A stretch of 38,572 bases of DNA from a virus: the UHGV virus genome UHGV-0071757; one strand, written 5' to 3'. Of this stretch, positions 1,069 to 1,554 are shown one piece after another. The notes below the pieces were generated by a model. It was given only the letters and a program-made list of their open reading frames with translations. It did not search any database and was not told where the DNA came from. Positions within the stretch are counted from its first letter, which is position 1; each line of letters starts with the position of its first letter. The translations under genes and the position numbers were made by a program.

Positions 1069-1554
1069 ATGAATAACTTTGTTGAAATTACCTCAAGAAT
1101 TGGTCGCATGTACCAAGATTTTCTTATAAGTGGAAAGGGGTCTGGCGACATCATAGAGGAAATTGACAAGCTAAGTGCAGAGCTGAGAAGGAATGGGTGT
1201 GTTAATTCTATCTTTTTTGAAACTTTGCTAAAGCAAGGCTTCATGTTTGACATGATTAATTACAACAAAGTCGCACCTAGTGCTTCGCAAAAATCATATG
1301 TGTACGTTCTGCATGCTGAAGATAGTGGGCTAACAAAAATAGGGTTTAGTCGCAGGGTTAATAAACGAATTTCAGAGATATCTCGCATGAGTGGTGGGAA
1401 GCTAAATCTAATTGCAAAGATTCCGGCCGATAGAGAGCTTGAAACCAAATTGCACCAAAAATATTACAACTATAGGTCGCACGGGGAGTGGTTTAGTCTC
1501 AATCGTTGTCATTTGAAAGAGCTAAAAGAAATGCCTGGTAACGAACTGAAATAA
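1069..1554 (+). CDS. T5orf172 / GIY-YIG-like domain protein (moron)
   Basis: 161-aa ORF, AT-rich by eye. C-terminal half carries the T5orf172-type pattern YVYVL...LTKIGFS...NKRISEI...EWFSL. Inserted between the lysis and terminase modules. Confidence 0.55.
   Translation: MNNFVEITSRIGRMYQDFLISGKGSGDIIEEIDKLSAELRRNGCVNSIFFETLLKQGFMFDMINYNKVAPSASQKSYVYVLHAEDSGLTKIGFSRRVNKRISEISRMSGGKLNLIAKIPADRELETKLHQKYYNYRSHGEWFSLNRCHLKELKEMPGNELK

Follow-up and report, generated by a model that had tools for sequence, protein, structure and literature searches.

Odn (Gp88) of ICP1 is a T5orf172 origin-directed nuclease whose activity against a satellite has been demonstrated experimentally and depends on a conserved glutamate (PMC8263062). 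Among putative homing endonucleases, too, T5orf172-type GIY-YIG proteins are the most frequent kind in ICP1, T5-like phages, and other phages, and 35% of the neighbourhoods of these homing genes include a terminase gene (PMC10448857). In P22, rha is described as belonging to the late operon, under regulation by IHF, and as harming lytic growth when IHF is missing (PMC4936722). Here we describe a phage gene that encodes a protein of the T5orf172 branch and that is the positional equivalent of P22 rha. We tentatively favour a role for it in conflicts between mobile elements.

The gene lies in a 38,572-nt stretch of viral DNA (UHGV-0071757; we call this whole stretch the window). The window begins partway through the lysis cassette of a prophage of the P22-like (Lederbergvirus) type, and E. 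coli strain E1 has a prophage that matches it with 100% identity over the region of interest. A sequence-only reading of the window had picked out a 161-aa ORF as an AT-rich, T5orf172/GIY-YIG-like moron. The ORF is there as described (1069..1554 on the + strand, with an ATG start and a Shine-Dalgarno sequence, AAAGG, at 1056–1060). It is not a chance reading frame, since it has above-threshold matches to Pfam, a full-length match to a PHROG, and orthologs of conserved length; the orthologs keep this length down to 35% identity.

The same gene, with 99.4–100% nucleotide identity, is already in the databases as epsilon34 gp68 (YP_002533529.1), g341c gp64, and E. coli WP_001058931.1, and we see no difference of substance between any of these and the window's gene. 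All of these copies have the same flanks and lie in the same slot. The gene entered GenBank in 2008 with the epsilon34 genome; the paper on that genome contains no discussion of it. Its RefSeq/PGAP name, "GIY-YIG nuclease family protein," is based on homology only. A literature search on the gene, on MUG113 in phages, and on the slot as a hotspot turned up no functional study. The gene's product belongs to a well-known superfamily and is already catalogued as an accessory nuclease under a homology-based name, and the gene lies in a region that has long been known to vary among P22-like phages; in itself it is of little importance. It differs from the T5orf172 proteins that have been studied mainly in its small, acidic, helical N-terminal domain and in being one allele of a regulated slot.

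Like the protein described here, Odn is phage-encoded and joins a C-terminal domain of the T5orf172 branch, with a catalytic arginine and a conserved glutamate (catalytic in Odn, and assigned by topology here), to a non-nuclease N-terminal domain, and neither protein has a histidine or tyrosine in helix 1. However, the N-terminal domain of Odn is RepA_N, which gives specificity for the satellite's origin, while ours is a 68-aa acidic three-helix bundle without a DNA-binding signature. The host and the type of phage also differ. The T5orf172 homing endonucleases of ICP1, T5-like phages, and Plateaulakevirus have the same Pfam domain, often adjoin terminase genes, and occur at boundaries of exchange, as here (PMC10448857). 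But they are larger, are often multi-copy, and insert between genes, and 87% of them have CapR/DUF723/DUF4397 zinc-finger repeats (PMC10448857). The protein in the window has 161 amino acids and no zinc finger, its gene is single-copy, and the replacement is ORF for ORF. P22 Rha (orf201), CUS-3 Rha, and the KilA-N protein HkbK of HK620 are of similar length (165–201 aa) and share the slot, the structured leader, the Shine-Dalgarno sequence, and the ATG with our gene, but their domains are Phage_pRha or KilA-N plus ORF11CD3, and they have no relation to its product in sequence or fold.

The slot between the lysis and terminase genes

The following features frame the ORF:

712..864, + strand: conserved ORF of 50 aa, overlapping the 3' part of Rz (PHROG 11822, E = 9e-38)
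898..923, + strand: intrinsic terminator-like hairpin (8-bp stem with 6 GC pairs, then a T run)
926..1068, + strand: leader common to the Rha, KilA-N, and GIY-YIG alleles; the shared sequence continues into the ATG
1555..1801, + strand: non-coding spacer between the GIY-YIG ORF and the DUF2560 gene, with 97.5–99.6% identity whatever the cargo
1802..2044, + strand: DUF2560 gene (Pfam PF10834, E = 2.6e-42), the right border of the slot region

Rz (266–724; Pfam Phage_lysis, E = 4e-40) comes after the end of the endolysin gene, and next is the 50-aa ORF, which is homologous to epsilon34 gp67 and Sf6 gene 65, is the final gene before the terminator, and has an annotated counterpart in epsilon34, Kapi1, Huey, and Sf6. 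The terminator (stem at 898–917) forms the left edge of the slot unit. It is kept in all of the relatives that we compared, and in epsilon34 a Rho-independent terminator is annotated at the same place. The sequence-only reading had called this the Rz terminator (899–922); the terminator is real, but the gene that precedes it is the 50-aa ORF and not Rz. That reading was right about a small ORF upstream of terS, which is the DUF2560 gene, a homolog of P22 orf80 and HK620 hkbM. The small terminase gene terS follows at 2047–2487 (PHROG 309, E = 2e-68), with the large terminase and then the portal gene downstream. Only 493 nt separate the end of the GIY-YIG ORF from terS, so the gene is located beside an essential gene.

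The sequence-only reading started from the premise that P22-like phages run from lysis to terminase genes with nothing in between. This turns out to be wrong, as there are always genes between the two in P22-like phages: P22 has rha, orf25, orf80, and orf59c at this location, HK620 has hkbK–hkbN, CUS-3 and phiv205-1 have Rha genes, and Sf6 and others carry genes there as well. In pairwise comparisons, homology between the window and sibling phages stops at 1073–1076 and restarts at 1552–1566. Sibling phages carry a different ORF that begins at the same ATG, and homology resumes at the stop. More precisely, the Rha, KilA-N, and GIY-YIG alleles share a leader of about 150 nt, the Shine-Dalgarno sequence, and the ATG; from codon 2 or 3 onward their sequences differ; and they converge again at the stop codon or a few bases past it. 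Because the alleles part just after the ATG and rejoin at the stop, exactly one ORF has been exchanged.

By Pfam, the cargos of the slot are Rha (plus ORF11CD3), KilA-N (plus ORF11CD3), or the GIY-YIG protein. Kapi1 and Huey have a Tad2-like (anti-Thoeris-type) gene at the same position, without the leader. The only empty slot that we found is in the distant phage mEp460, where the leader and two thirds of the spacer are missing too. The spacer has a second insertion point, at 1699/1701, which is empty in the window and is filled in Sf6 and Huey by genes of the Sf6 gene 66 / N4 gp49 family.

The flanks are better conserved than the neighbouring genes. The leader is 98.6–99.3% identical between the window and CUS-3, epsilon34, or E. 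coli W, and the spacer is about as similar (see above), versus 91–93% for Rz and 95% for the DUF2560 gene. Carriers and non-carriers of the GIY-YIG allele show equal conservation of the flanks. Flanks that act as homology arms in cassette exchange would be expected to show this pattern. Homologous recombination in these near-identical flanks, rather than insertion, is the most likely route by which the allele arrived. The flanks are also widespread. Among 5,426 complete E. coli genomes, about half (2,552) have part of the spacer and 1,065 have it nearly complete; the leader is present in 486 E. coli genomes and nearly complete in 364.

The GIY-YIG gene is much rarer. It is present in 58 of the 5,426 complete E. 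coli genomes (always on the chromosome, in a single copy, and with at least 95% identity) and, among 233 phage records with the same flanks, in five; these five records represent epsilon34, g341c, and NM-3. The GIY-YIG ORF is a minority allele of the slot. The unit that holds it consists of the terminator, a structured leader of about 150 nt with the Shine-Dalgarno sequence and the ATG, a cargo ORF, and the spacer with its stem-loop. We are confident that the GIY-YIG ORF is one interchangeable cargo allele of this conserved post-lysis accessory slot of lambdoid and P22-like phages.

The same gene is also found in the same slot in prophages with another type of terminase, such as that of E. coli W. 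Furthermore, orthologs with about 60% identity, from Erwinia and from metagenomic lambdoid prophages, lie directly after Rz and before the terminase genes, behind a recognizably homologous terminator and leader, even though the types of holin, Q, and terminase differ. Since orthologs occupy the same slot amid such different phages, the association of this family with the slot must be old and not the result of a recent insertion.

The sequence-only reading described the ORF's codon usage as distinctly AT-rich. Its GC content is indeed lower than the window's mean (38.7% versus 45.4%), and its GC3 is 38.9%, versus 44–55% in the neighbouring genes. The shift is real but modest: the ORF is at the 12.5th percentile among 486-bp windows of the 38,572-nt stretch, and two other regions of the window are much more deviant (28–34% GC).

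These observations bear on the main rival to a conflict nuclease, which is that the gene encodes a free-standing homing endonuclease. Such an enzyme would cut related phages that lack the allele, near the slot, and repair templated by the carrier would copy the gene in; the allele would spread, and the competitor's markers would be excluded during co-infection. T5orf172 genes do tend to adjoin terminase genes at exchange boundaries (PMC10448857), and our gene is at a mosaic boundary, as epsilon34's homology to the window ends at 2044. Homing would also fit the sporadic presence of the gene (three phages among the 233 flank-sharing records, and 1% of E. coli genomes), its 99.4–100% identity between phages of Salmonella and E. 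coli when the adjacent Rz is only 91–93% identical, and an AT shift relative to the surroundings that recurs in four host lineages. However, close relatives do not have an empty target: they have another gene on the same ATG, and only the distant mEp460 is empty. The flanks contain no carrier-specific co-conversion tract or disrupted site, in a search that does not discriminate. There is just one copy per genome. And homing genes are expected to decay, while the orthologs of this gene have diverged to 60% identity and are still intact in the same slot. On balance, we consider homing unlikely.

Two more distant relatives (35% identity) lie outside the slot, in siphovirus prophages, where accessory islands separate the tail-chaperone gene from the tape-measure gene. 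These islands hold Arc repressors, Bro-N, Rha, and KilA-N+P63C genes, and a superinfection-immunity gene; one of the relatives overlaps the stop codon of a Rha gene. So the family is consistently found in the company of the Bro/KilA/Rha guild, as an alternative to its members in the slot and as a neighbour of them in the islands.

This company raises the possibility that the protein is a non-cleaving regulator, a DNA-binding or antirepressor-like protein akin to Rha and KilA-N, in which the GIY-YIG fold only binds. The family's co-occurrence with Bro-N, Rha, and KilA-N genes would fit this, as would the leader, Shine-Dalgarno sequence, and start codon that it has in common with the Rha and KilA-N alleles. 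A prediction by association casts T5orf172 as a module that binds DNA and is found alongside Bro-N and KilA-N, and I-TevI also acts as an autorepressor (PMC8096241). But six residues of the nuclease domain (Y79, K90, R100, E125, H129, and E140) are invariant or nearly so in 67 sequences, which is hard to explain without catalysis. Also, the domesticated CapR protein kept its zinc-finger domain and lost its nuclease domain, which is the opposite of what we see (PMC8096241). A purely regulatory role therefore seems improbable to us.

The two domains of the GIY-YIG protein

The protein has two domains, joined by a short linker:

1069..1272, + strand: N-terminal domain (aa 1–68), an acidic three-helix bundle (helices 3–21, 25–41, and 47–68)
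1297..1551, + strand: C-terminal GIY-YIG nuclease domain of the MUG113/T5orf172 type (aa 77–161), basic, pI 9.6
1303–1305, 1336–1338, 1366–1368, 1441–1443, and 1486–1488, + strand: codons of the conserved core residues Y79, K90, R100, E125, and E140, respectively

The motifs that had led the sequence-only reading to propose a T5orf172/GIY-YIG-type C-terminal half are in place (YVYVL at aa 77–81, KIGFS at 90–94, RISEI at 100–104, and EWF at 140–142), and HMM searches bear the assignment out. Residues 77–154 match MUG113 (PF13455; 50.1 bits against a cut-off of 22.3, E = 4e-13) and, overlapping it, T5orf172 (PF10544; 39.2 bits against a cut-off of 20, E = 1e-9). Both families belong to Pfam's GIY-YIG clan. 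PHROG 4284, whose function is not annotated, matches the protein from end to end (E = 1e-75). No NCBIfam model matches the protein, and at E ≤ 1 there is no match to Phage_pRha, KilA-N, Bro-N, or ORF11CD3 in Pfam.

The C-terminal domain has a beta-beta-alpha-beta-alpha core, with a three-stranded sheet flanked by helices, as in the GIY-YIG superfamily. In a set of 67 sequences that reaches down to about 25% identity, Y79, K90, I91, G92, R100, E125, G139, W141, and F142 are invariant and H129, R136, H138, and E140 are nearly so. Profile comparisons align Y79 and R100 to Y6 and R27 of I-TevI and place them on the equivalent motifs of BH0048 and T4 endonuclease II (EndoII). The tyrosine of the second motif (YIG) is replaced by an invariant lysine: K90-I91-G92 aligns to Y17-V18-G19 of I-TevI, and likewise to the YIG motif of BH0048 and T4 endonuclease II, and the I-G is kept. 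The alignment to I-TevI spans the first 27 columns only, and the alignments to I-TevI, BH0048, and T4 endonuclease II are individually weak yet agree with each other. E125 lies in a helix (122–131) that follows strand 3 (112–119). It is most likely the metal-binding glutamate, the counterpart of I-TevI's E75 by topology only. The domain is probably catalytically active, because ICP1 Odn, which has a similar set of residues, is a proven glutamate-dependent nuclease.

SLX1, I-TevI, and T4 endonuclease II differ from our protein in having a YIG second motif instead of KIG and in having other partner domains, and their similarity to it is not significant alone (E = 0.36–0.96). Another alternative is that the protein is a housekeeping structure-selective nuclease, SLX1-like or T4 EndoII-like, that would trim branched intermediates of replication or recombination, or host DNA, just before packaging. 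We think that this is very unlikely.

The N-terminal domain has a pI of 5.2 (4.5–6.3 in most orthologs), versus 9–9.6 for the nuclease domain. The sequence-only reading had seen no recognizable motif in the first 70 or so residues, and no Pfam family matches them; the domain contains one cysteine and no zinc-finger pattern. All ten N-terminal domains of the family match PHROG 875, a group of phage proteins of about 85 amino acids whose function is not annotated, and this is the domain's sole link to anything outside the family. A profile search for the domain in other architectures returned only a truncated copy of the same gene. Similarly, tblastn with the window's N-terminal domain found the same five phage records only, and a diverged N-terminal domain had no match.

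The domain does not look like a DNA-reading module. This bears on homing as well: 87% of the T5orf172 homing endonucleases have zinc-finger DNA-binding repeats (PMC10448857), which this protein lacks, and its extra domain is small, acidic, and helical. In short, the protein pairs an acidic three-helix bundle with a basic GIY-YIG nuclease domain that belongs to the MUG113/T5orf172 branch and retains its core residues.

We discarded two other leads on the architecture. Residues 17–56 resemble designed pentatricopeptide-repeat proteins in the PDB (E = 3e-6), but eight repeats were summed to reach this score, and the i-Evalue of every one exceeds 200. And two apparent domain fusions, of Rz to the nuclease (P0014) and of the nuclease to DUF2560 (P0005), are single-member deletion chimeras of the locus, and we excluded them.

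We also considered that the protein might be a defence or superinfection-exclusion nuclease that is expressed from the prophage and shields the lysogen from other phages. It is structurally similar (with 23% identity) to PD-T4-3 (PDB 9u75), a GIY-YIG restriction endonuclease specific for 5hmC, and one of the 35%-identity relatives adjoins a superinfection-immunity gene. However, PD-T4-3 is a bacterial defence protein of 248 amino acids with a different second domain, and PADLOC's model for PD-T4-3 does not match our protein. PADLOC gives weak matches to the candidate systems PDC-S57 (E = 4e-4, 18 bits) and PDC-M64B (E = 0.034) and no others; of these, PDC-S57 is the one that might speak for defence, and no match has a convincing score. 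Expression from the prophage also seems inconsistent with the terminator directly upstream, the lack of a promoter-like site, the late-operon orientation and position, and the positional equivalent, rha, being a late gene. We therefore give a defence role little credence. The regulator, the packaging-associated structure-specific nuclease, and the defence gene are all less likely than either homing or a conflict nuclease.

RNA stem-loops and probable late transcription

Three conserved hairpin structures lie in the leader and the spacer:

981..1046, + strand: composite stem-loop in the leader (stems 981–986/1041–1046, 988–991/1029–1032, and 994–998/1021–1026; apical stem 1001–1005/1010–1014)
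1704..1738, + strand: stem-loop in the spacer (outer stem 1704–1707/1735–1738, inner stem 1710–1719/1723–1732)
1755..1780, + strand: further hairpin in the spacer, GGGATA...TATCCC and then TTTT, with an invariant stem and a loop that is wholly different in P22

The leader stem-loop (66 nt) is kept in nine leaders from phages of E. coli, Salmonella, Klebsiella, and Erwinia. RNAalifold predicts 23 pairs, of which 10 are changed on both sides, compared to 0–4 in slid controls; 92.7% of cells are paired, compared to 39–52% in slid controls; and none of 500 shuffles matched its score. Its U-G wobbles are valid on the + strand only. A covariance model of this stem-loop (R1) has one match in the window, at 977–1053. 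The model also finds copies upstream of Rha, KilA-N, and GIY-YIG cargo and none upstream of Tad2-like cargo.

The spacer stem-loop at 1704–1738 lies directly downstream of the second insertion point. In 7 distinct sequences, 100% of cells are paired, and four pairs are changed on both sides, versus 0–1 in slid controls; its G-U wobbles fit the + strand. The loop is AAT in the window and CCTACA in Sf6, Huey, and mEp460. The hairpin at 1755–1780 shows no covariation, and its support is weaker than that of 1704–1738. We searched positions 850–2100 against Rfam (E ≤ 1) and found no family for either of the two covarying stem-loops; a RyhB-like match on the terminator is a chance match. These two stem-loops, one on each side of the cargo, may be sites of processing or regulation.

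A consensus scan of positions 600–2200 for sigma-70-like promoters found none, when 2.9 would be expected by chance. This simple scan gives weak negative evidence, as a weak promoter or a non-sigma-70 promoter in the leader could escape it. The sole convincing terminator on the + strand is the one upstream of the leader (898–917). The other match on the + strand (1223–1238) is inside the GIY-YIG ORF and has a poor T tail, and downstream of the ORF there is no convincing terminator of its own on this strand. Because there is a terminator upstream and no detectable promoter, we infer that the gene is transcribed as part of the late operon. By this simple scan and by analogy with rha, it is most likely read, along with the packaging genes, by Q-antiterminated late transcription.

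As for the suggestion that the gene is a moron, it is present in some close phages and replaced by different genes in others, and its composition does deviate, as a moron's would. But we found neither a promoter nor a terminator of its own, and by the strict definition, which requires both, it is not a moron.

Proposed role of the nuclease

We propose that the protein is a metal-dependent DNA endonuclease that is made late in infection and that is used in conflicts between mobile elements: it would cut the DNA of a co-resident or co-infecting phage, of a satellite, or of the host. The acidic N-terminal bundle might be an oligomerization module, or a module for partner binding or regulation, rather than a DNA-reading head. 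Four observations lead us to favour a conflict nuclease. The protein has an intact catalytic core; its family is associated with genes of the accessory and antirepressor-like kinds; in sibling phages the same slot holds an anti-Thoeris-type gene; and ICP1 Odn sets a precedent. This is guilt by association, and a late-expressed nuclease in conflicts between mobile elements is a tentative proposal that we would not call probable. Our claims about the protein's identity and function, taken together, come slightly nearer to an even balance. An unspecific nuclease that is made late would put the phage's own DNA at risk, so there must be some specificity or control.

A broader version of this proposal, which we think is doubtful, is that the post-lysis region of lambdoid phages is a dedicated, regulated cargo cassette in which the GIY-YIG allele is a new kind of late conflict nuclease. 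The leader RNA (981–1046) and the stem-loop 3' of the cargo (1704–1738) would control or process the expression of interchangeable conflict genes from the late transcript. The targets would be a satellite, a competing phage, or a host defence, and the choice of target would be set by the acidic three-helix bundle, acting as a partner-binding domain and not a DNA-binding domain.

The slot may matter more than this one allele. Since its occupants include a Tad2-like anti-Thoeris gene, it may be a hotspot for counter-defence or competition. If so, the GIY-YIG nuclease is a cheap candidate for a role in phage–phage or phage–satellite conflict. Furthermore, a conserved unit with two covariation-supported RNA structures could account for the restraint of toxic cargo, such as Rha, in the late operon.

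We also noticed that some matches, in phiv205-1 and other phages, are labelled "HNH homing endonuclease." This label is a mis-annotation of the small terminase gene.

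A covarying hairpin ahead of the cargo gene

Among the interchangeable cargo genes between the lysis and terminase genes of P22-like phages, the Rha, KilA-N and GIY-YIG alleles share more than a position. In the window, the cargo is a GIY-YIG nuclease family protein (1069–1554, + strand), and its leader (926–1068) contains an RNA element supported by covariation:

981–1046, + strand: composite RNA stem-loop of 66 nt, in the leader 5' of the cargo ORF

Covariation was strong, with both sides changed in 10 of the 23 pairs, and in the alignment of leaders 92.7% of cells were paired. 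The wobbles are compatible with the + strand only. The Rha, KilA-N and GIY-YIG alleles all carry this stem-loop, in phages of E. coli, Salmonella, Klebsiella and Erwinia; it was not found 5' of the Tad2-like alleles. An Rfam search of 850–2100 (E ≤ 1) assigned it to no family. In one Klebsiella phage, the stem-loop and its Rha gene have moved together to a different position in the genome.

Three annotated Rha genes begin inside this leader:

CUS-3 locus (L002), 1480–2091: annotated Rha gene
P22 locus (L018), 918–1523: annotated rha
phiv205-1 locus (L004), 1540–2100: annotated Rha gene

The ATG that is common to the slot's alleles lies 36–69 nt 3' of these annotated starts, and the extra 5' part of each gene overlaps the conserved hairpin, so the annotations probably make these Rha genes too long.

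Spacer hairpins and a second insertion point

The spacer on the other side of the cargo ORF (1555–1801) is also structured:

1699/1701: second site of cargo insertion, within the conserved spacer; empty in the window
1704–1738, + strand: stem-loop, conserved with compensated pairs
1755–1780, + strand: second hairpin (GGGATA/TATCCC) followed by a T run, 3' of the first

Across 7 distinct sequences, pairing in the first stem-loop was 100%, with four compensated pairs, and its loop is replaced in Sf6, Huey and mEp460. Neither spacer hairpin had a match in the Rfam search of 850–2100. The 3' part of the spacer is present in 2,552 of 5,426 E. coli genomes; Stx phages are among its carriers. At the point equivalent to 1699/1701, Sf6 and Huey have an insert of ~415 bp that encodes a Phage_gp49_66 protein (N4 gp49 / Sf6 gene 66). 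(In Huey, this protein is annotated as "anti-CRISPR.")

Tad2-like cargo, and AT-rich regions elsewhere

Two sibling phages have, where the window has its GIY-YIG ORF, a gene for a protein with a Tad2-like domain (Thoeris anti-defence 2, PF11195):

Kapi1 locus (L005), 1455–1976: Kapi1_043, Tad2-like (E = 4e-26)
Huey locus (L015), 935–1435: CDS0064, Tad2-like (E = 2e-24)

This replacement suggests that the slot can hold counter-defence genes.

Elsewhere in the window (mean 45% GC) are two AT-rich regions:

33750–34500: AT-rich patch, 34–36% GC
33930–34514, + strand: 194-aa ORF in this patch
35250–37500: strongly AT-rich block, ~30% GC, containing one ORF
35641–37239, + strand: 532-aa ORF in this block

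The 194-aa ORF had no matches in Pfam, PADLOC or PHROGs. The 532-aa ORF had none in Pfam or PADLOC; it matched only phrog_14259 (E = 7e-18), a family with no assigned function. The composition of the 35250–37500 block is much more foreign than that of the GIY-YIG ORF.

Labeling of the small terminase gene

Several deposited phage genomes label the small terminase gene as "HNH homing endonuclease":

phiv205-1 locus (L004), 2646–3086: small terminase gene, with equivalents in vB_EcoP-611R6/683R2

The phiv205-1 gene shares 98.6% identity with terS of the window (2047–2487), which matches PHROG 309, so this label is an apparent mis-annotation.
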